From Octopus vulgaris (Eukaryota): a stretch of 64,000 bases of DNA. How positions within the stretch are numbered: position 1 is the first letter of the stretch; each line of letters starts with the position of its first letter. Made by a program: the position numbers and the translations under genes. Below, piece by piece: positions 4,736-60,998 of the stretch. The notes beneath the pieces were generated by a model. The model saw only the letters and a list, made by a program, of their open reading frames with translations, was not told where the DNA came from and ran no database searches. The DNA lies in contig OX597822.1 in the NCBI GenBank assembly GCA_951406725.2, forward strand, positions 74,834,001 through 74,898,000, read 5' to 3'.

Positions 4736-5281
4736 ATGAGATATATTAATGTTAATGGTCACGAACTAAAACTGTATAGGCAAAATCAATATATATAACA
4801 AGGGCGCTTTTTTTAAAAACACCAAAGTAAATTTCCAAAATTAGTCAAGAGGGATATATAACCGTATCAGGTACGAGCTCGTTCTTATCGGTTATCAAAG
4901 CCGGCTAACCTCAGTTAATTTAGATGAAATCCAATTACTTGAATTTACTATACTCGGTATATACTCCTGATGTTTATATATACATGCTCATTCCATTCTT
5001 CTGTTACTATTAAAAAACTCGATGGACATTTATGGATTTTCAGATATTTACTTGGTACAACAAACTATATCCAGTTTACAGTCGAGTCGTTTATAGTCTA
5101 TATCCGTGAATGAGTTTATACGGTAAAATTATATATATGTATGTATGTATGTGTCTATGTACACATACATACATATGTATATATATATATATAATGTAAT
5201 AGGAATCAAAGGGGTCCATAAGGTAAAAAATTATTGAGAACCACTGATATAGAGTCTTGTGAGTGAAAATAGATATACCCG

Positions 5282-5390
5282 TAATAAAAAGGCCTAGCTT
5301 TCTCGTGTTGATTCGGCCTGGGTATTATATATATATATATATATAATACCCAGGCCGAATCAGCACAAGAAAGATAGGCCTTTTTATTAT
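5282..5390. repeat. Palindrome with about 45-bp arms centred on (TA)n
   Basis: taataaaaaggcctagctttctcgtgttgattcggcctgggtatt versus aatacccaggccgaatcagcacaagaaagataggcctttttatta. Confidence 0.9.
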
Positions 5391-5686
5391 ATATATATAT
5401 ATATATTACACATACATGCACACACTTGCATACTTATTGCTAATGCCAAAAAGTACGAAATATGAATAAAACAAATAACCAATATAAATCGAGAGATCGC
5501 CATAAATACGACTTTAAGAGAAAAATACATATGCGTGTGAGTATAAGTTGCGTATTTCTACATAAATAAGCGTTTACATGATTGCAATTACAACAAGTGA
5601 AAGAATAGAGTGTAACCGGTAAGTTTAAAATTATTAATACACAAGCACGTGGTTTGTGTATTTATTAAGAGAAAACAATCACTTAC

Positions 5687-5695
5687 GTTGGACAT
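5687..5695 (-). CDS. First coding exon (ATG TCC AAC = MSN) of the minus-strand gene
   Basis: Minus strand reads gtcaccATGTCCAAC|gtaagt: strong Kozak context immediately followed by a consensus donor. Confidence 0.75.
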
Positions 5696-5900
5696 GGTGA
5701 CGGATTTGGTAGGAAATTTAAACGGATTACTTGAAATGTATTAACGAGAAAGGTAACAATAAAACCAGGTAATAATCATGTAGGATATAATTGAATTAAG
5801 ACCGGTGAATGTGAAATTAATTTGGAATTGACGTTTAAAATGGCGCGACGCCTGCGCCCTGGGAATGTGAGAGTTATCCTCCCTTGGATTAGTCGAACTC
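5696..5900. promoter_or_regulatory. Bidirectional promoter / 5' UTR region with YY1-type motif
   Basis: Repeat-free, CpG-retaining segment. AAAATGGCG at 5837-5845. Outward-facing GTAAGT donors at 5686-5681 (-) and 5955-5960 (+). Confidence 0.6.
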
Positions 5901-5954
5901 TTATATGAAGAAAACATCGTAAGCGAGAAAGTAGTGAGAGGAATTCTACAGATT
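5860..5954 (+). other. Putative non-coding first exon of a divergent plus-strand gene (start approximate)
   Basis: Ends at ATT|GTAAGT and is followed by intron-like TA/TG microsatellite DNA. Confidence 0.5.
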
Positions 5955-6009
5955 GTAAGTAAGGGAAACATTTTGGAAACTTTTCGTAAACTTTATAAAC
6001 TTTGGTTGT

Positions 6010-6307
6010 ACTGTATATATATGTATGTGTGTATATTTATAATTATATATGTTTATGTGTATTTATAAGTATATGTGTGGGTGTGTGTGTATTTATAAGT
6101 ATATATGTGTGTGAGTATTTATATGTATGTGTGTCTTTATAAGTATATGTATGTGTGTCTTTATAAGTATATATGTGTGTGTGTATATATAAGTATATAT
6201 ATATAGTGTGTGTATATATATAAGTATATATATATATATATAGTGTGTGTGTATATATATAGTGTGTGTGTGTATATATATAAGTATGTGTGTATATATA
6301 TAGTGTG

Positions 6308-6381
<74 letters not shown>

Positions 6382-6760
6382 GTGTGTGTGTGTATATATA
6401 TATAAGTATATATATATAGTGTGTGTGTATATATATAAGTATATATATATAGTGTGTGTATATATATAAGTATATATATATATAGTGTGTGTGTATATAT
6501 ATATATGTATATATATATAGAGTGTGTGTGTGTATATATAAGTATATATATATATATATATAGTGTGTGTGTATATATATAAAGTATATATATATATAGT
6601 GTGTGTGTATATATATAAGTATATATATATATAGTGTGTGTGTATATATATAAGTATATATATATATAGTGTGTGTGTATATATATAAGTATATATATAT
6701 ATATAGTGTGTGTGTATATATAAGTATATGTATATATAATGTGTATATAAGTATATATGG
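6010..6760. repeat. Compound (TA)n/(TG)n micro/minisatellite
   Basis: Higher-order unit aag(ta)n-g(tg)n(ta)n repeated many times. Confidence 0.95.
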
Positions 6761-7177
6761 GTTAATTACCAAATAATTATATATATATATAAAATAAGAA
6801 TTGTATACAAATATATGTACATACGCATATGTGTACGTATGTACATATTCGGATATATGATACATTGACGATATATATATATGGCTGTGTACAGAGGCGC
6901 ATTTACGTATATGTATATATGTATGTGTTTATGTGTGTATATATCTATACATATTATATACGCATGTGTGTGCGTTTGTATATACTCTTACTCTTTTACT
7001 TGTTCCAGTCATTTGACTTTAGCCATGCTGGAGCACCGCCTTTAGTCGGGCAGTCGACCCCAGGACTTATTCTATCGGTGTATTTTGCCGAACCGCTCCG
7101 TTACAGGGACGTAAACAACCAGCATCGGTTGTCAAACAATGTTGGGAGGACAGATACACACACACACATATATATAT

Positions 7178-7355
7178 GGTACTGTTTAAGAAGAGTGGTC
7201 CCGGTGCGCGCACTCACGTACTCGCGCTAGCTAGTCGTGACTAGTCGATCCTTACTTAGTGTTTTATTTACTTTGCTAGGTAGTCGTAGGATCGACTAGT
7301 TACGACTAGCAAGTCGCGAGTGCGCGCACTGGGATCACTCTTCTTAAATAGTACC
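7178..7355. mobile_element. Palindromic MITE (Merlin-like GGTACT termini) nested in a family A SINE (about 6985-7550, minus)
   Basis: TIR ggtactgtttaagaagagtggtcccggtgcgcgcactc / gagtgcgcgcactgggatcactcttcttaaatagtacc, plus an inner inverted repeat; CpG-rich, so probably young. Confidence 0.8.
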
Positions 7356-8291
7356 TTATATATATATATATGTATGTATACAAATATATACGACAGGCTT
7401 CTTTCAGTTTCCATCTACCAAATTCACTCGCAAGGTTTTGGTCGGCCCAAGGCTATATTGGAAGACACTTTTCCAAGAGCCTTGCAGTAGGACTGAACCC
7501 GGAACCATGTGGTTGGTAAACAAGCTATGTACCACACAGTCACTCCTGTGAAATATTCAAAGACTATTTAATATCTTGAGTCATAAATACTTTTTTTTTA
7601 AATACTGCAAGACTAGAAATAAATGACAAATTTTTGGAATGTTTCACTATGGCAACCATTTCCTACATTCAAGGAGACATCCACTTACGTACCAGAAATA
7701 CAATAATAATTAAGTCACAATTATTTTGAGTTATATTTAAGACTTAAAAAAAAATTTCTCCACTGTAAAAATTTTAATCTGCATTCATTCTCGCTTTCCC
7801 TTTCATCTTCTACATTCCTCTTCTGCATTTATCCTTTCCTTTTCCTCTTTTTCCGTAACATTCCTCTCCTTTCCTGTTTCATTGTTCATCATCCTCTTTC
7901 CTATTTCCATCCAACTCATCTAACATAGACCCAGAGATGGGTCTGAAAGCTGTAGCAATGTCTCATCAAAATATCTGCCATCCCTAACGGCAAAGCACAT
8001 AACATTACAATACAACCTCTTAACAAACAACAAATTTTCGTGTATATGTATGGATTTATAAATTCCTAGAAATTTTTTATATATCATATAGATAAATGCA
8101 TCTATGTATGTACCTTGTATACCATGGAGAATATGGATTGAATGACTATATATATTGGCCTTTGAATTTGTTTTCTCCTCTCCTTAATTTTATATTTTTG
8201 AGCTCTATCAGAGTGCTAATCGGTTGAGCTGTATAAAATGGATACCTTTATCACTTATTTCTTCATTGTATATATATATATATATATATAT

Positions 8292-9190: not shown

Positions 9191-11049
9191 CACAGGTGTG
9201 CCTGAGTGGTAAAAAATTTGCTTCCTAACCACATGGTTCCAGGTTCAGTCCCACTGCATGGAAGAAGTTTGTTGTATATCATCATCATCATCATTGTCAT
9301 TTAACGTCTGTTTACCATGCTGGCATGGGTTGGATGGTTTGACTGGGTTGGAATGCTGCACCAGACTCCAGTCTGGTTTGGCATGGTTTTCTATGGCTGG
9401 ATGCCCTTCCTAACGCCAGCTACTCGGAGAGTGTAATGGGTGCTTTTACGTGCCACCAACACAGGTGCCAATTTGCTTGACACCGGTATCTACCATGATT
9501 GCGATTTTGCTCAGCTAGATGGCTCTTCTTCTCAAGCACAACATAATGTCAAAGGTCTCGGTCATTGCCTCTATGAGGCCCAACACTTGAAAAGAACTCA
9601 GCCACTCTGTTGTATATACATGGAACAATGGAGCAGCTTGCACATGAAATTAATGTGCAAGTGGCTGAGTACTCCACAGACATGTGTACCCTTGATGTAC
9701 TTCTCAGGGAGATTCAGCATGACACAGAGTGTAACAAGGCTGGCCCTTTGAAATACAGGTACCACTCATTTTTGCCAGCTGTGTGTGTGTGTGTGTGTTG
9801 GTTTGTTTACGTACTCATAACTTAGCAGTTTAGCAAAAGAGACTGACAGAATAAGTACCTAGCTGAAAATTAAAACAAAAAAAAAGTACTGGGGGTCAAT
9901 TCATTTGACTAAAATACTTTTCAATGTGGTGCTCCAGCATGGCCACAGTCTTATGACCAAAACTAGTCAAAGTTGTGTGTGTATCCAACTACAGTCCAAC
10001 TACTGAATCAATTACAAAAAATAACTCTACAAAACAAAAACAAACAAAACAAGAATTTGAAGCATCAAAAGAGGAAATGTCTTGTCATGTTTAACTTGGA
10101 GTCAGGGAAGATGGGATGCTTAGATGAGGTGGAGGGGGAGAGGCGTGAGAGGATTGAGCGAAGAGAATGGAGCGGAGGGAGTGTGTTGTTTGGTGTAGTT
10201 GAGACATTTATATCTTGATGGTAAAAGGAAGAAGTGTTGGGATGGGAGAGGCATGGATGGGAAGGAAAGAAGTAAAAAAGTAAGGCTGCAGAAGTGACAG
10301 TTGGTGAGAATTATATTGAGAGGAAGATAGAGAGAGAGAGAGGGGGGTATTACAAGCTGGTGTTTACTCAGTTTATATTCCAAGCTGAATGATTCCTCCT
10401 TTAGCTATATCTATGAAGCAATTCTAAGTGCTTGGTTTGTGGATGAGAGCAGGAGGAGGCTGTGTGTGTGTGAGAGAGAGAGAGAGTGTGTGTGTGTGTT
10501 TTTTGCCTGCTAGCGATTGCTTTATCTATGTTATCACTAACTGATGTTTTATGCTCCAAGAGAGAGGTTGCTGCTCAGTTTTTGTTGATGATTAATAAAG
10601 CTAACATCCGTACGCACCATATACAAATACACAACCATGTACACACACTCACACACACACACACACACACGTACGTACGTATGTTGAAAGATATTCAGAT
10701 TCCATGAGGCAATATGTTAGTAAACATGAATGTGTGTATGCAGGCGTGGCTGGGATTAAGAAGTTTGCTTCCCATACACATGGTTTAGGATTCAGTCCCC
10801 TGCATGGCATAGCATCTTGGGCAAGTGTCTTTTACTATAGCCCAGGACCAACCCAATACTTACTTGTAAGCAGATTTGATAAATAGAAACAGAAAGAGTC
10901 CTAGCTTTGTGTGTGTGTGTGTCTGTACCTGCACCTATTGCTATTTGTTTCAAATGCTTATAAGAAATTAGACTCCAATAAAAATATCTAAGAACCAGGC
11001 ATTGGCTTTTCCTTTCTCAAAATTGTGTATCTTATACCTTTCTACTTTA

Positions 11050-22966: not shown

Positions 22967-23427
22967 AAATATCAACAGGCATATATAATTTGCTTTCTGT
23001 CTTTCGTTCGTATCGGTCTGTGACAGAGACTAAGTCCCACATATTCAGAATCTATCCTCGCGTCTTCATTCGCCTCCCCACTCTCTCTCACAACATACAC
23101 ACACTTGAGAGAGAGAGAGAGAGAGAATTGCAATATGCTGTTACCATTCTACCTCGTTCATTACCCACTCTTTTATAGAATCACGCAAGATAAAAATTGA
23201 CTCAGTTGGGCGTAGGAAGGAAGAGGTGTGGCCTGTGAAATTACTTGCTGTTGTGAGTTGTGAGGAGAAAATAGGCGAACCAAAACAACTCGGTGCACGA
23301 AACTCTCGTCCCACGGGTCACTTTATAACTTCTGCCAATTATAACGATTATATATATATATACATATATTATACACTCATTTATTGAGTTCTCTATTGTG
23401 TTTGTTTTACAAAACTTTTCTCTCTGG

Positions 23428-23460
<33 letters not shown>

Positions 23461-25124
23461 CATACATACACGTACGCTGGCGTACCTCAACTTACATCGG
23501 TAATAAGTTTCATGACATGACTTAATTCGAAAAATTACGTAACATGAAAATTAAAAGAAAAATAATCTTATATTTGTTTTAATAATGGTTTATATATATA
23601 TATGTATATATATATATATTTTTTTTTTTCACGCGTATTTTTTATTTATTTGATTTCCCACTTCGGTATTGGTTTTTTTTGTATTCTACAATTTTATACC
23701 TTTAAATGTATTCGCTCGGGCCGACGTCGAGTCGAAAAAGACGTAACTCGAATTAACGTAAGCTGCGTTATCCATCCCTATATATATATGTTGTATAGCG
23801 CGCGCGCGCGCGTATTTATATATATATACACGCACACACCTACACCCTGGTGGAAATATGACTTACTACTTGTAGGTGTGAATAATTTAATCACCCCTCC
23901 CCCCTGCTCTCTTTTTGTTCACGTCCCCACCCATTCTCTGGGTGTACTAATTAATATCTTACACGCAGAAAAACACAATGACATGTGGTTAAACTTCTAA
24001 AAACTTAAGACCCAACTTTCTTCATTCCTCCTACATAGCAAATCTCACGCCCTCCCCCTCTCGCTCTGTCTCTTTATATCTAACTCTATATCTCTATCTC
24101 CCCCTCTCATGTTGTCTTTCTTTCTATCTCTGTATCTCACTCCGTCTTTCACTCTTACGGTTTCTTTCTCTCTCTCTCTCTCTCTCCACCTCCGTCTCTT
24201 GCTCTTACTCTCTTTCCGTTCCTTCATAGTATTTTTTTTTTCATATCTCTCAGTTTACTCCTTAGTTCCGACGCGAAGTGACGGCTATTTTACCAGCAAA
24301 ACTGTGGATACTTAGGAACTAAGGAAACAAACGTACATTAATATTTATTATTATCACTATCTTAATAATTAACACGTTCTCTTTTCTACTTTATTTCAAA
24401 CACAGCGGAACACAAAAGGTGAGAAGCAATTTAGTAAAAGCGTACTAATGCGCGTTGTTACACACACACACACACACACACAAATACTTGTTTAATTTTG
24501 TCTGTCGGACAAACGAGTACTCGATACCATTGTAGAGATTAATAATATATATAGTTTTTGTTTTGATCGGGTCACTCTGTTGCTACTGTGAATTTCATCC
24601 GAGAGTACGTAGATAGGGTAATCGGGCAAGTTTTAAGACTAATTCGACCAACGTATATATATATATAAGGCGATCTTTCGTCTCTAGTAGACCTTTCCGT
24701 CGATTTCCGTAAAAAAAATTTTTTTTTTTTACATATGGGCTTGCGGGAACTTTTGAAGTAATGAGAGCGAAAGAGACTAAGAGAAAGCGATTGTATGACG
24801 AGGGAAGTTCTTTTGAAGTTACCGTGCATGGCAAGCATTGATGTACATGTGTGTGTGTGTGTGTGTGTTTGATGGGGTGTGAGAGACAGACAGTATGTTG
24901 TGTAAGTGAAGTGCTTTTGTTAGTGTGTGTGAAAGAAAGAGATAACTGAAATTTTTTACTCGGTGTATGTGTATATGCATGTATGTGTGTGTGTGTATGT
25001 ATCTATGTATGTGTGTGTAGATCGCATCGCCATATATATATATATAGTGTCTGTGTGTGCGTGAGAAATAGAGAGATGGGTCAATTATTTTACATGCTTA
25101 CGGTTCTGTAAATAAACATTCTTT

Positions 25125-44524: not shown

Positions 44525-46197
44525 CACTTGCGTCGGAAATTAATTAGCACTTCCCAAATTTCTACATTTTCTTACATTTTCTTAATTTAATTAACTTATT
44601 ATCAGAAACGAACTTGTTTTTAATCAAAAATTTATTAAAACATATCCCAGCACACCACATAATTGTTATTAATCGTGAAATTTAGTCAATATCTTGTTGC
44701 TCCTCCTTTGGCAGCAATGACATCTTCTACGCGGGTCGGCATGCTGTCTATGAGTGCCTGCAGGTACTGTGCAGGGATGGCCCTCCATGCAGCAAGAAGT
44801 GCCCCAAACAGCTTGTGTCGGTTCCTGTATTGCTGCACATTCAAATCCCTACCCAATCGACTCCAGAGGTTCTCAATAGGGTTCAGGTCAGGTGACTGGC
44901 CAGGCCAGTCCATGACCGTCACCCCATGGTCCTTGACGAAACTGGTTGTGAGCTTGGCTGTGTGGGAAGGCGCGTTGTCCTGCTGGAGCATGTACTCCTC
45001 GCCACCAAAGAGGTATCCCGTACTATCTCAACGTACTTTGCTGCGTTGATGTTGCCTTCGACGGCATAGAGCCGCCCAACACCACTGTAGCTGAACGCCC
45101 CTCACACCATCAGACCACCCCCACCATGCTTCATGGTGGGAGCAATGCAGTCTTTGTTGAAGCGCTCACCCCTGCGGTGTCGCACATGGACAGGCTTGTC
45201 ACTGACGAGACTGAATTGCGACTCGTCAGTGAACATCACTGTCCACTACTGCTGCACAGTCCATGTCTTGTGGGCTGTAAGGAGCGGCTTATGGGCGGCC
45301 CTACAGGATTTTAGACCAGCTTCCAGTAATCTGGTCTTGACGGTAGTTGTAGACAACTGCTTCCCTGTCATCTTTTGCATCTCCTCCGCCAGTTGCTGGC
45401 TCGTTGCCCTTCGGTTGTACAGTAACTTTTGGATCAGCATCCGGTCCTCCCGCTGGGTCGTCAGCCTCTTCCGTCCCCTACCCTTTTTGTCAGCTGCTGA
45501 TCTGGTTTCCTCATATTTCTTAAATAAGCACTGAATTGTGCGCCTGGCTACACCAAGTTTTCTGGCTATTGCAGCCTCCGACAGCTTCGCACGCCACGAG
45601 AGAGCCTCGTACCGTCTCTCCAAGATCATGCGAGGTCTTGGGCCCATCTAGGAATGAACGATAAAAACCAGTTATTTTCATTAAAACTATTCATTTGAAT
45701 AATGTTATGCTATAACAAAACTGCTATGAGTTGTTATTCATTAAACAAAAAGAAAGAAAGCAGAATTTCTCACCTTATTTGATGTATAACAGAAAGTTTT
45801 GTGAACCAGAAGTGGCATCATCAAGCAGAGTGTAGGAGAATTTGTGAGGAAAAAAATCTTGCAAATACACAAATCAATTAACCTACGAGCTGTTCAAAAC
45901 GTCTTACGCGATGAGAAAACTTAGTACGGTGTGATTTCGGTCCTTGCGAGGCGCTACCTATATCTATTAAACAAAGGAAGATTTGTCTGCATCCGCACTC
46001 CAAGTTGTTGTTGCACTGCTATGTCAACATCATTAGGCTGTAGACTCTCAAACTGCTCTGCAAACAAAGTTACGTCATCGTTCTGCGCAACAGTGAACTC
46101 ACAACAAAGCAATAGTTCGAGATATGGCCACTAGGTGACAGCAAATACCTTGAGTGAAGAGCAAATCAAGGGTGCTAATTAATTTCTGACGGTAGTG
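44525..46197 (-). mobile_element. Near full-length Tc1-like DNA transposon inserted in the TA tract of a family A SINE (44348-46420)
   Basis: 26-bp TIRs cacttgcgtcggaaattaattagcac / gtgctaattaatttctgacggtagtg; TA flanks. Confidence 0.95.
44686..45647 (-). pseudogene. Tc1 transposase, frameshifted
   Basis: HTH region (IARKLGVARRTIQ; GRGRKRLTTQREDR) and catalytic motifs QQDNAPSH and WPGQSPDLNPIENLW, split over several frames. Confidence 0.93.
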
Positions 46198-48360: not shown

Positions 48361-48790
48361 ATCAAAATCGTTCAACATGAATGGAAATTGTAGCTGTGAT
48401 ACCAGTGCCGGTGGCAAATAAGAGAACCATCCGAACGTAGCCGTTGCCAGCGCTGCCCTGACTGGCTTCCGTGCCGGTGGCACATAAAAAGCACCATCCG
48501 ATCGTGGCCGTTGCCAGCCTCGCCTGGCCTCTGTCCCGGTGGCATGTAAAAAGCACCATCCGATCGTGGCCGTTTGCCAGCCTCGCCTGGCCTTCGTGCC
48601 GGTGGCACATAAAAAGCACTCACTACACTCATGGAGTGGTTGGCGTTAGGAAGGGCATCCAGCCGTAGAAACATTGCCAGATCAGACTGGGCCTGGTGCA
48701 GCCTTCTGGCTTCCCAGACCCCAGTTGCACCGTCCAACCCATGCCAGCATGGAAAGCGGACGCTAAATGATGATGATGATGATGATGATG
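48361..48790 (+). mobile_element. Family D element, young copy with about 59-bp internal tandem units
   Basis: gtgccggtggcacataaaaagcaccatccgatcgtggccgttgccagcctcgcctggcc repeated 3-4 times, then the RTE-type tail and (GAT)n. Confidence 0.85.
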
Positions 48791-50166: not shown

Positions 50167-50288
50167 ACTAATGTAAGAAATGTAAGAAGAAAATCAGTGT
50201 TTAAATTATATATGATGATAGATATCACTTATATGAACTAAAGGTGTGTTTCTGCCAATGTTTACATTGGTAAGCACGCTTTATAACC

Positions 50289-50915
50289 ATGTTTACTTGG
50301 AACTGCTTAAAAGAAATTCAAAAAAACTATAGGATTGCTGATAAAAGTGTACTCATGAAAGCTAACCTTGAGGTTAAGAAAATTATGGAGAGGTATAACT
50401 TACAAATGAAGACAGAACCACTTGATCCTAAGCAACCTTGGTTTATTGTGAAAGATCATAAACAAAATTTTTTTAATAACCCTTCCTTAAGACTTATCTG
50501 TCCTTCTAGCTCTGACATCGGTGTACTTAGTAAAAATATTCTAAAAAAATGTATTCCTACCTTAATTAAAAAATTAAAGCTTAGTTTATGGTCCAATTCA
50601 TTGCAAGTCGTCAACTGGTTTAGTTCTATTACTAATGAGAGGAGCAGTAAGTTTATCCAGTTTGACCTTTCTAGTTTTTATTCCTCCATCAACCCAATAG
50701 AAATTAATAAGGCACTTTGGCTTGCTCATAACAAAGCTGGTTTCACCAGGGAAGAAATTAATGTTGTGTTGGCTGCCAGAAAATCTATCATAAAGTTTGA
50801 CAATAAGATGTGGTTCCGTAAATACACACCCGATGGTTTTGCTGTTACGATGGGAAGTTCTGATTCAGCACAAGTAACTGATTTAGTCTGTAAATATATA
50901 TACTTTTTGAAATGA
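50289..50915 (+). mobile_element. Penelope-like element reverse transcriptase fragment (fingers to motif B')
   Basis: KDHKQNFFNNPSLRLICP, FIQFDLSSFYSSI (motif A), AARKSII and VTMGSSDSAQVTDLV (motif B'). No intact YxDD motif or GIY-YIG domain is visible. Confidence 0.85.
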
Positions 50916-51018
50916 ATGATGCTGTTTATATGATAGTGACACCCATTTACAATTAACACACAGTGTCCAGACAAGATGTACATACATCATCATCATCATT
51001 TAGCATCTGTTTTCTATG

Positions 51019-51053
<35 letters not shown>

Positions 51054-51767
51054 ATCATCATCATCATCATCATCGTTTAACGTCCGCTTTCCGCGCTAGC
51101 ACGGGTTGGACGGTTTGACCGGGTCTGGGAAGCCAGGGCCCGCTCCAGGCTCCAGTCTGAATCTGGCAGAGTTTCTACGGCTGGATGCCCTTCCTAACGC
51201 CAACCACTCCGTGAGTGGATTGGGTGCTTTTTACGTGCCACCTGCACAGGGGCCGGAGGGTCCGGCATCGTCACGATCGGTTCGAGCATTTTAACGTGTC
51301 AGCGGCACGGGGGGGTACAACGAGGTCCGGGGTACTTTGGGGATCGGGGTACTTTGGGGATCCGGGGTACTTAGAATGGGTAGGGGGTATGTGGAATTGC
51401 TGCAGAAAGCAGCCCGGGTCTGGGTCCAGTTGAGGCGGGTAATATAGGGGAGCAACCAGTGGGGAAGGTTGGGGTTAGGGTTAGGGTAAGGAGGAACGAT
51501 GGCAGGAAGGGTTGGTGTAGGTTCCTAAGAAATAAAAACGTAGGATATTACGAGGCGGGAGGGTACTAAAAGGGGATGGTCGGATTGAGGCAGTGTCAGG
51601 AGGAAGCGTAAGATCGGTGGGCAGTTGATGAGCTATGGCGCTAGCAGCTTGTCTTTTCACAGTGAAAGCATATGAGGAAAGGGATAGTGGGGGGAGGAGG
51701 AGGGAGTAGGGCGTACCCGGTGTAGATGAGTAGGGCGTATCCGGTGTAGATGGTGAGAACAGGGTAT

Positions 51768-52160
51768 ACTGGTATTGGTGGTGGGGGTGAGAACAGTGTT
51801 CACCGGTATTGGTGGTGGCGGTGAGAACAGTGTTCACCGGTATTGGTGGTGGGGGTGAGAACAGTGTTCATCGGTATTGGTGGTGGGGGTGGGGGGCGTT
51901 TTCATAGGTATTGGTGGTGGGGGGGGCGGGTTCATCGGTATTGGTGGTGGTGGTGGTGGGGGGGGGGTTCATCGGTATTGGTGGTGGGGGTGGGGGGGGG
52001 TTCATCGGTATTGGTGGTGGGGGGCGGGTTCATCGGTATTGGTGGTGGGGGCGGGTTCATCGGTATTGGTGGTGGGGGTGGGGGGGCGGGTTCATCGGTA
52101 TTGGTGGTGGGGGGGGGGGGGGGTTCATCGGTATTGGGGGTGGGGGTGGGGGGCGGGCGC
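51768..52160 (+). repeat. G-rich VNTR (ttcatcggtattggtggtg(g)n, about 12 units)
   Basis: ggtattgg recurs at about 27-36 nt spacing, with variable G runs. Confidence 0.95.
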
Positions 52161-53310
52161 ACCGCCAATGGCGGAAAGAAGGGAAAAGATGGGATTACGG
52201 CTTGAGGTAGCCTAAGGTTAAATTTTGTAGAGAGAGAGATAGGAAAGATAAATCAAGTTATGGCGAAGGCTTGAAAGTAGCCTAAAAGGTTAAATTTTCG
52301 TAAATTTTCGATGGGTAAGACGAATCAAGTTATCAATGTATGAATAAACGTAGTAACAACGAATAAAAATAGTAAGATAAATTTTTAAGAACTTGCTGCG
52401 GGCATCGACCGGGAGTTGAAATTGAAGAAGTAAGTAAGTTGAATTGGGAATTTAAATTGCAGAATCGTAATGGTAATGGCGATTTTCAAGTTTTAGCATA
52501 AGAAGAAGAAGAGGAGGAAAGACCGCCACCGCCAATGGCGGAAAGAAGGGAAAAGATGGGATTACGGCTTGAGGTAGCCTAAGGTTAAATTTTGTAGAGA
52601 GAGAGATAGGAAAGATAAATCAAGTTATGGCGAAGGCTTGAAAGTAGCCTAAAAGGTTAAATTTTCGTAAATTTTCGATGGGTAAGACGAATCAAGTTAT
52701 CAATGTATGAATAAACGTAGTAACAACGAATAAAAATAGTAAGATAAATTTTTAAGAACTTGCTGCGGGCATCGACCAGGAGTTGAAATTGAAGAAGAAG
52801 TAAGTTGAATTGGGAATTTAAATTGCAGAATCGTAATGGTAATGGCGATTTTCAAGTTTTAGCATAAGAAGAAGAAGAGGAGGAAAGACCGCCACCGCCA
52901 ATGGCGGAAAGAAGGGAAAAGATGGGATTACGGCTTGAGGTAGCCTAAGGTTAAATTTTGTAGAGAGAGAGATAGGAAAGATAAATCAAGTTATGGCGAA
53001 GGCTTGAAAGTAGCCTAAAAGGTTAAATTTTCGTAAATTTTCGATGGGTAAGACGAATCAAGTTATCAATGTATGAATAAACGTAGTAACAACGAATAAA
53101 AATAGTAAGATAAATTTTTAAGAACTTGCTGCGGGCATCGACCGGGAGTTGAAATTGAAGAAGTAAGTTGAATTGGGAATTTAAATTGCAGAATCGTAAT
53201 GGTAATGGCGATTTTCAAGTTTTAGCATAAGAAGAAGAAGAGGAGGAAAGACCGCCACCGCCAATGGCGGAAAGAAGGGAAAAGATGGGATTACGGCTTG
53301 AGGTAGCCTA
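52161..53310. repeat. Tandem repeat: 3 full near-identical units plus a partial unit
   Basis: accgccaatggcgg starts at 52161, 52528, 52894 and 53257 (periods 367, 366, 363); differences lie mainly in a gaag/taag slippage tract. Confidence 0.97.
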
Positions 53311-53533
53311 TATATATATATATATATACATACACACACACCATGTTACTACTAGTAACATTCAACAGTCATTTCGATGTGGCAACTGGCTTTACTATTT
53401 AGTATACATTATTACTGTCTCTTCTTGAGATCTTATAACTAGCTACTTTGCTTGTTGCGAATTAGTGACCAATGGTCACTTTGTTTACAATATATTGTTA
53501 GCAGTAACGGATTCTGGCTATCACTCTGATGCA

Positions 53534-53594
53534 CAGATTCTCATGGCTGAAGATGAGCCAAATAGCTCGAAACTGAGTCAGTCTCATAATCCTG
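53534..53594 (+). ncRNA. Type I hammerhead ribozyme with palindromic stem III
   Basis: CAGAUU-CUC-AUGG-CUGAAGA-U-GAGC(CAAAUA)GCUC-GAAA-CUGAGUCAG-UC^UCAU-AAUCCUG; predicted cut after 53583. Confidence 0.78.
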
Positions 53595-53908
53595 TTAGCT
53601 GCTAGAGAGTAATAGGGGTTCACTACTTTTCTACTCTAGGCACAAGGCCTGAAATTTTGGCGGGAGGGGGCCAGTCGATTAGATTGACCCCACTACGCAA
53701 CCAGTACTTAATTTATCGACCCCGAAAGGATGAAAGGCAAAGTTGACCCTGGCAGAATTTGAACTCAGAATGTAAAGACATTGTATGTAAAGAGTGCAGA
53801 GTGTTGCACTGATAACCGGTTGGTGGAGAATCTGCCTGGGGTTAAACTAGTAGTGACATTCAACAGTCACTTTGATGTAGCGACTGGCTGTTTATATATT
53901 TGTATATA

Positions 53909-60385: not shown

Positions 60386-60998
60386 CAGTGGTTCCCAAAC
60401 CACCCCCTAGATGCCCAGGCCAGATTCCTAGCAACCCTACCCCAACTAACCATCACAAACATACACTCCTTTCTGAAGTAAAATCAAAGCAACTGTATTT
60501 CACAAAAAAAAACTTAACCTAATAAACCCATTATTTTGTTGTTTTTACATGAATCTCTACCCCGTTATTGCCCCACTTTTTACATGAATCGCTACCCCGT
60601 TATTGCCCCACTTTTTACATGAATCGCTACCCCATTATTGCTCCACTTTTTACATGAATTGCTACCCCATTATTGCCCCACTTTCTACATGAATCGCTAC
60701 CCCATTATTGCCCTACTTTTTACATGAATCATTACCCCATTATTGCCCCACTTTTTACATGAATCATTACCCCATTATTGCTCCACTTTTTACATGAATC
60801 ATTACCCCATTATTGCCCTACTTTTTACATGAATCATTACCCCATTATTGCCCCACTTTTTACATGAATCACTACCCCATTATTGCCCCACTTTTTGCAT
60901 GAATCGCAACCCCATTATTGCCCCACTTTTCTTCAATACCCCCTTCGAACTTTCCACTGCTCCCAGTTGGGCAATACCACCTACTTTGGGAACCACTG
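60386..60998. mobile_element. hAT-like MITE with internal 36-bp minisatellite, nested in a SINE
   Basis: TIR cagtggttcccaaa / tttgggaaccactg; TSD atctagag / atttggag; unit ttttacatgaatcgctaccccattattgccccactt repeated about 10-11 times (about 60541-60930). Confidence 0.9.

Follow-up and report, generated by a model that had tools for sequence, protein, structure and literature searches.

A young, composite-looking insertion with a tandem monomer array and a LINE-type tail in Octopus vulgaris

Modules of the insertion and its site

Within the window, the 64-kb stretch of Octopus vulgaris DNA that was analysed, an element of ~2.26 kb (a stretch of 2.3 kb) lies between (TA)12 at 51028 and (TA)10 at 53309. 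Read on the minus strand, three monomers and a monomer stub lead into a VNTR and a unique segment, followed by one tandem unit and the tail of a repeat family (D) and finally by (ATG)7, with (TA)n at both ends (Table 1). These modules agree with a preliminary description that had proposed "3 and a bit" near-identical units of ~365 bp (found as three units of 363, 366 and 367 nt and a stub of 55 nt), a C-rich VNTR of ~12 units (12–13 units of 27–37 nt), ~450 bp of unique C-rich sequence (441 nt at 51751–51311, including a CCCTAA pair and a 17-nt repeat), a CpG-intact family-D module with an (ATG)n end ((ATG)7, with 8 of 8 ancestral CpGs kept) and (TA)n on either side. The module pattern is not attributable to chance. 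No second copy of the monomer, the VNTR or the unique segment was found within the 64-kb window.

Table 1. Features of the insertion, in minus-strand order
Feature	Position	Strand	Basis or remark
(TA)10 target-side microsatellite	53309..53328	.	first TA shared with monomer start
Monomer 1, 363 nt	52948..53310	-	TRF and unit comparison
Monomer 2, 366 nt	52582..52947	-	TRF and unit comparison
Monomer 3, 367 nt	52215..52581	-	unit comparison
Monomer stub, 55 nt, fused to VNTR	52160..52214	-	identical to monomer start
C-rich VNTR	51752..52159	-	12-13 units of 27-37 nt, two blocks by unit type
Unique C-rich segment, 441 nt	51311..51751	-	24-nt and 17-nt short tandem repeats, CCCTAA pair
Diverged ~60-nt family-D tandem unit, 1 copy	51255..51310	-	78% over 90 nt to 48469-48557
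Family-D tail, CpG-intact variant, terminal double stem-loop	51074..51254	-	alignment of D copies; compensatory change
(ATG)7 3' terminal repeat	51053..51073	-	
(TA)12 target-side microsatellite	51028..51052	.	

TRF detected the monomer array with a period of 366, 3.2 copies and 99%. The monomers in the window differ from each other only at one slippage site of 3–4 nt and one SNP, and each comprises a long sub-unit and a short one of ~70 nt, with a boundary motif common to both. On the minus strand each monomer carries three CGCCAT cores, and CCAT cores sit 20–46 nt inside the 5' end of the element. The triple occurrence of CGCCAT per monomer has a P of 0.0002 for that word, which was picked post hoc; in 11% of shuffles, one or another CpG hexamer reached a count of three. 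The monomer also contains two poly(A)-signal hexamers (AATAAA), but on the plus strand, opposite to the proposed reading. Folding of the monomer was unremarkable (z −0.4 and −1.6). No hammerhead was found in the monomers on either strand, whether as an Rfam match or as a core pattern, and a home-made descriptor gave no HDV-like ribozyme in the monomer, a weak result in that it also gave none in shuffles and was run without a positive control.

TRF reported the VNTR (52159–51752) as 12.1 copies of 34 nt; when split at a core shared by the units, it resolves into 12 units of 27–37 nt and a degenerate final unit. In the unique segment, the CCCTAA pair is at 51486 and 51480, and the 17-nt repeat has 2.7 copies at 51326–51372 (TRF). 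Observed/expected CpG ratios were 1.42 in the monomers, 0.92 in the VNTR, 0.83 in the unique segment and 0.98 in the tail, against 0.46 for the whole window. Purines make up 65–67% of the plus strand in the monomers, VNTR and unique segment and 46–54% in the D part (window 50 ± 6%). Since this shared strand skew of the head modules stops sharply at 51310, we infer that the head (monomers, VNTR and unique segment) has a common origin, separate from that of the tail. Neither a TA remnant nor a duplication was seen at the seams between the modules of the element.

With a longest stop-to-stop frame of 128 aa, the element is without protein-coding capacity, and a protein search with the frame at the monomer/VNTR junction returned no homologues among 5872 candidates. 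No Pol III head was found in the element, by A/B-box pattern, by tRNA search or by Rfam match to tRNA, 7SL or 5S, nor was the conserved RTE 5' domain of Ceph-SINEs seen in the head by eye. The minus strand contains no (CCCTCT)n head, no Alu-like region, no SINE-R and no poly(A) after AATAAA, and the element contains no inverted monomer arm. The class names used in the preliminary description consequently had to be given up: "SVA-like" for want of (CCCTCT)n, an Alu-like part and poly(A), the 3' end being (ATG)7, and "SINE" for want of a Pol III head, the D copies resembling 5'-truncated LINE 3' ends. The central VNTR that marks SVA elements is present (12–13 units), as an analogy only. Two features match other classes: a LINE-family-type 3' end with a microsatellite, in that the tail aligns with the 12 other D copies from the window and ends in (ATG)7; and, in the plus-strand reading, a partial head-to-tail tandem in a microsatellite, formed by the stub and three units that end in (TA)n. 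A Helitron was rejected, since the plus-strand end lacks CTRR and no further support was found, as was a retrozyme, since no monomer has a type I hammerhead.

A target-site duplication is unreadable within (TA)n at both flanks. The (TA)n tracts are not diagnostic and carry little weight, because (TA)n directly adjoins 3 of the 12 other D tails as well. The flanking compound microsatellites (51014–51052 and 53309–53344) form a 36-nt inverted repeat (97%), which reaches four bases into non-repetitive sequence and may be due to chance. Directly beyond the (TA)n tract lies a very short second family-D 3' end (50984–51017, minus strand). A 213-aa open frame at 50274–50912 on the plus strand shares 44% identity with unnamed proteins of 759 and 806 aa that have a Penelope-like appearance; it ends ahead of the catalytic DD motif, and the match is not continued on the other side of the element. 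The site of insertion is probably what remains of a Penelope-like element. On the opposite flank, a Type I hammerhead-like motif (53541–53589, plus strand) scored 24.5 bits, below the cut-off of 34, and is bracketed by a 60-nt direct repeat pair (53348–53406 and 53846–53906); the region 53348–53906 is probably an old pLTR or retrozyme remnant split by a SINE-like repeat. A second match to the hammerhead-core pattern occurs at ~244–275 of the window (minus strand). Elsewhere in the window are a minisatellite at 60542–60930 (11 copies of 35 nt, 94% matches), a fragment of a Tc1/mariner transposase at 45249–45647 on the minus strand (PF01498, E 6.5e-13) and CpG-rich bins at 23200–24800 and 4800–7600 (observed/expected 1.1–1.8), possibly promoters or young inserts.

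The family-D tail and the recurrence of the monomer

Family D has 23 matches in the window, of which the 13 copies of at least 95 nt were aligned and the 10 shorter ones left out. D copies have ATG-type repeat ends, variable 5' cut points and tandem units of ~60 nt upstream of the tail, and for these reasons we read them as 5'-truncated LINE 3' ends, not as SINEs. The copy at 9469 has, within ~100 nt of its tail, a short degraded stretch that may resemble the end of an ORF; this stretch and the ATG-type tail are what would place D in the RTE clade, as the preliminary description had it. A protein search with the D-unit frame gave no homologues among 4 candidates. According to the part of PMC9115989 at hand, the 3' UTR of RTE-2_OV is mostly microsatellite, so D would not be the tail of that element.

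The tail of the element keeps all 8 ancestral CpGs, as against 20 of 86 pooled over the 12 other D copies, the best of which keep 5 of 8 and 4 of 6. Its distance from the D consensus is nonetheless on a par with that of typical old copies (18 of 156 non-CpG sites differ). Substitutions in the tail run 9 from AT to GC and 3 from GC to AT, and it has additional CpGs at sites that are nearly uniform in other D copies. Retention of CpGs despite this divergence, together with the excess of AT-to-GC changes, indicates that the tail diverged in an active lineage and did not decay where it stands. Three substitutions have occurred in its terminal 5-bp stem with all five pairs kept (A-U to G-C, by a change on both sides, and U-A to U-G), whereas each of four other D copies with stem changes has lost at least one pair; random substitutions would retain all stem pairs with a chance of 0.03–0.08. 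This is modest evidence for selection on the tail, which may have served an active master as its recognition signal. The assignment of the tail to a young, separately evolving D lineage, put forward earlier, is supported by the 8 of 8 CpGs and by the pairing kept in the stem, and the same two observations, set beside the 20 of 86 CpGs of the 12 others, rule out a decayed D copy.

The head was sought in public sequencing runs with 51310–53310 as the stretch covered. Part of the head was present in 20 of 24 listed runs, from 8 studies and under three organism labels, and half or more of its sampled words in 2; the highest share in any listed run was 0.63. None of the listed holders was an RNA run, X11 being labelled RNA through an automatic guess. 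For comparison with contigs, a 403-nt monomer/VNTR stretch (52124–52526, only 36 nt of it VNTR) was used as query in four runs, and it was matched by 2450 contigs in X1, 767 in X3, 366 in X7 and 101 in X11. Single-contig depths, which are not copy numbers, reached 21,934 in X3, beside others at 10–60. The monomer is thus a highly repeated tandem family found under three organism labels. The reading in the preliminary description depended on neither monomer nor VNTR being single-copy, and both proved multi-copy in the contigs of public runs. Metagenome scans with two monomer motifs gave 0 and 0 matches.

Head-to-tail joints between monomers (52520 to 52161) were seen in X3, X7 and X11, which makes the tandem arrangement a family trait of the monomer. 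Every monomer in the window has A at the position of 52180, where T accounts for 96–99.98% of depth across the four runs; the array therefore expanded from one variant unit. Other monomer copies carry five-base duplications at 52207–52209, the phase of this element's 5' end, which points to a reused unit boundary. A variant in the VNTR at 52147 is carried by 11 contigs in X1, 6 in X3 and 1 in X7. In two X3 contigs, with 8 and 4 other letters, the monomer gives way to a G-rich tract in the same phase as at this locus, a hint that the monomer-VNTR junction is shared by other copies; beyond the monomer, on the side of the VNTR, these contigs extend for 23 and 18 letters, short of the 31 required for bridging. 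A fixed junction is what a family, and not random truncation, would be expected to give. In summed depth, which is not a copy ratio, the VNTR-side bins lie far below the monomer bins, and the outermost is zero in X11. A Dong/R4 origin of the head was considered as a candidate, because Dong-R4 is active in O. vulgaris.

Interpretation and rival explanations

The insertion at this locus is real, young and composite in appearance, and it combines an abundant tandem monomer with a LINE-type tail, for which the evidence of selection is modest. We give about even credence to one element, LINE-dependent and without an ORF, that has a monomer array at its 5' end and inserted recently, a reading taken from a single locus. 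Such an element would most likely derive from a LINE, as a bipartite form that has no ORF and whose 5' UTR is the monomer array, and would less likely be a chimaera assembled from unrelated modules. The CpG richness of all modules, the seam free of TA or duplication, the unusual tail lineage and the recurring monomer-VNTR phase favour joint mobility. The composition break at 51310 speaks against one element, because it implies that head and tail have different origins. The great abundance of the monomer would also be compatible with monomers that occur apart from the tail, a case that the preliminary description had named as refuting its reading.

On this model, RNA polymerase II would start within a monomer, so that monomers downstream of the start stay in the transcript, and the monomers would be a putative repeatable internal promoter. 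The transcript would continue through the C-rich VNTR and the unique segment, which may serve as a tether. The reverse transcriptase of a partner LINE would then bind the 3' stem-loop and prime at a nick in (TA)n, aided by the (ATG)n end; the cDNA would stop at the 5' end of the RNA or truncate, and be joined via TA microhomology. Local duplication would later restore the number of monomers. We are doubtful about a further-reaching proposal, that of a dispersed, active cephalopod family of composites of 2 kb and more, in which a separately derived monomer array and VNTR act as a self-renewing Pol II promoter and the LINE-type tail is under structural selection. If it were true, an invertebrate would have converged both on the SVA design and on the monomer promoter of mouse L1.

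A different account, which we hold to be somewhat unlikely though a serious contender, is that two adjacent elements are present. One would be a tandem of Penelope type, or derived from a satellite, that has no hammerhead, is read on the plus strand and has its fixed 3' end within (TA)n, at 53310; it would have fused to or landed beside an independent young D copy, and the two may be the arms of a single insertion. In the plus-strand direction the array does consist of a stub and then full units ending at one point, the form of a partial-tandem PLE, and the composition break at 51310, the abundance of the monomer and the plus-strand AATAAA hexamers all fit. That Naiads have no hammerhead and prefer (TA)n, and that non-autonomous Chlamys elements make head-to-tail multimers, is described in the portion of PMC8557442 at hand, which however presents cephalopod Naiads as long-inactive remnants. 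Against two elements also stand the lack of an inverted monomer arm, of a hammerhead in the monomer and of a TA remnant at 51310, although the inverted 5'-truncated arm is frequent and not obligatory in PLEs of the Naiad/Chlamys type. Two X3 contigs moreover have the monomer-VNTR junction at the same phase (below the 31-letter rule), and the one spot would have to have received another element just as young, from an unusual D lineage.

We think it improbable that the insertion is a young, 5'-truncated copy of an autonomous D-group LINE with monomers and VNTR inside a long 3' UTR, in which case the monomers would not act as promoters. Other D copies are indeed 5'-truncated at various lengths, and because they carry tandem ~60-nt units the D 3' UTR would tend to expand in tandem; truncation would also account for the TA microhomology seen at the 5' junction. 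However, the D copy at 9469 reaches the stretch that may resemble an ORF end within ~100 nt of the tail, the monomers, rich in CpG and with CCAT cores close to the junction, have the look of a promoter, and the break at 51310 speaks against a single continuous UTR. Very improbable, to our minds, is a one-off event at this locus, either a chimaera, made by template switch or by 5' transduction, or a miscounting of monomers in the assembly. Consistent with such an event, no listed run exceeds 0.63 of the head's sampled words and none of the reads in these data covers the whole locus, but the monomers differ at slippage and SNP sites that look real, tandem joints and (as a hint) the VNTR junction are present in other runs, and there is modest evidence of stem selection in the tail lineage.

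Relation to known elements

The element that we favour would best be filed as a variant within the bipartite non-autonomous LINEs, its head resembling mouse L1 promoters in construction. Bipartite non-autonomous LINEs are produced by the RTE, Ingi, Vingi and R2 clades, by the account in the available part of PMC5786205. These ORF-less LINEs (RTESINE1/2, WALLSI3, Bov-A and RIME in that part of PMC5786205) are the closest kind, having in common with our element the lack of an ORF and of a Pol III head, a LINE-type 3' end with a microsatellite and a presumed 5' Pol II promoter. They differ in that 365-nt tandem monomers and a VNTR, in an element of 2.3 kb, go unmentioned in the same part of PMC5786205.

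Mouse L1Md arrays, as presented in the accessible portion of PMC6454616, likewise consist of near-identical, CpG-rich 5' tandem monomers with a partial monomer on the 3' side of the array. The G/T monomers of mouse L1 truncate close to the GCCATCTT YY1 site (PMC6454616, same portion), and YY1-like cores would lie close to the 5' terminus in both systems if the CCAT cores here, chosen post hoc, are of that type. In contrast to L1Md, the monomers here are 365 nt and AT-rich (not ~200 nt), no ORFs follow them, and the end is (ATG)n and not poly(A).

Hominid SVA elements are also composite, non-coding and ~2 kb in length, with a central GC-rich VNTR of ~30–40-nt units, and are presumed to be mobilised in trans by a LINE, as proposed here (PMC3287187, in the part at hand). 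Unlike SVA, the present element has a LINE-type structured tail and is without (CCCTCT)n, an Alu-like part, SINE-R, poly(A), homology or a readable TSD.

Non-autonomous Penelope-like tandems share with it head-to-tail monomers of ~360 nt plus a partial unit, insertion in (TA)n and great abundance, to judge from the portions at hand of the sources on Naiad/Chlamys (PMC8557442) and on retrozymes (bioRxiv 10.64898/2026.07.22.740005). They differ from the present case, which has no hammerhead and no inverted arm and in which a VNTR, a unique segment and a LINE-type tail are attached. Mollusc LP-SINEs are again non-autonomous retroposons that finish in short tandem repeats at the 3' terminus and are presumed to have a Pol II head, but this head is a single LINE-derived domain of ~70 nt with no tandem array, at least in the available text of PMC4758252.

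The annotation of O. vulgaris comprises 176 RTE and 80 satellite families, and its available text makes no mention of composite or monomer-headed elements (PMC13282606). In the partly accessible texts that our literature search covered, such a cephalopod element was not described; Repbase, Dfam and the Bonar 2026 library lay outside that search, so a catalogued consensus may exist.

The question addressed by an element of this kind is how promoters are kept up in retroelements that are prone to truncation. Arrays of 5' monomers are largely a mouse feature, according to the portion of PMC6454616 at hand. In an invertebrate element that is non-coding and has a great number of monomer variants, the gain of monomers would become readable from sequence. 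Should two elements prove to be present, the monomer would still be an abundant tandem repeat without a hammerhead, one that occurs under three organism labels and that we could match to no description. Traces of monomer gain are already visible, in lineage-private variants along the array and in the short duplications at the unit boundary.
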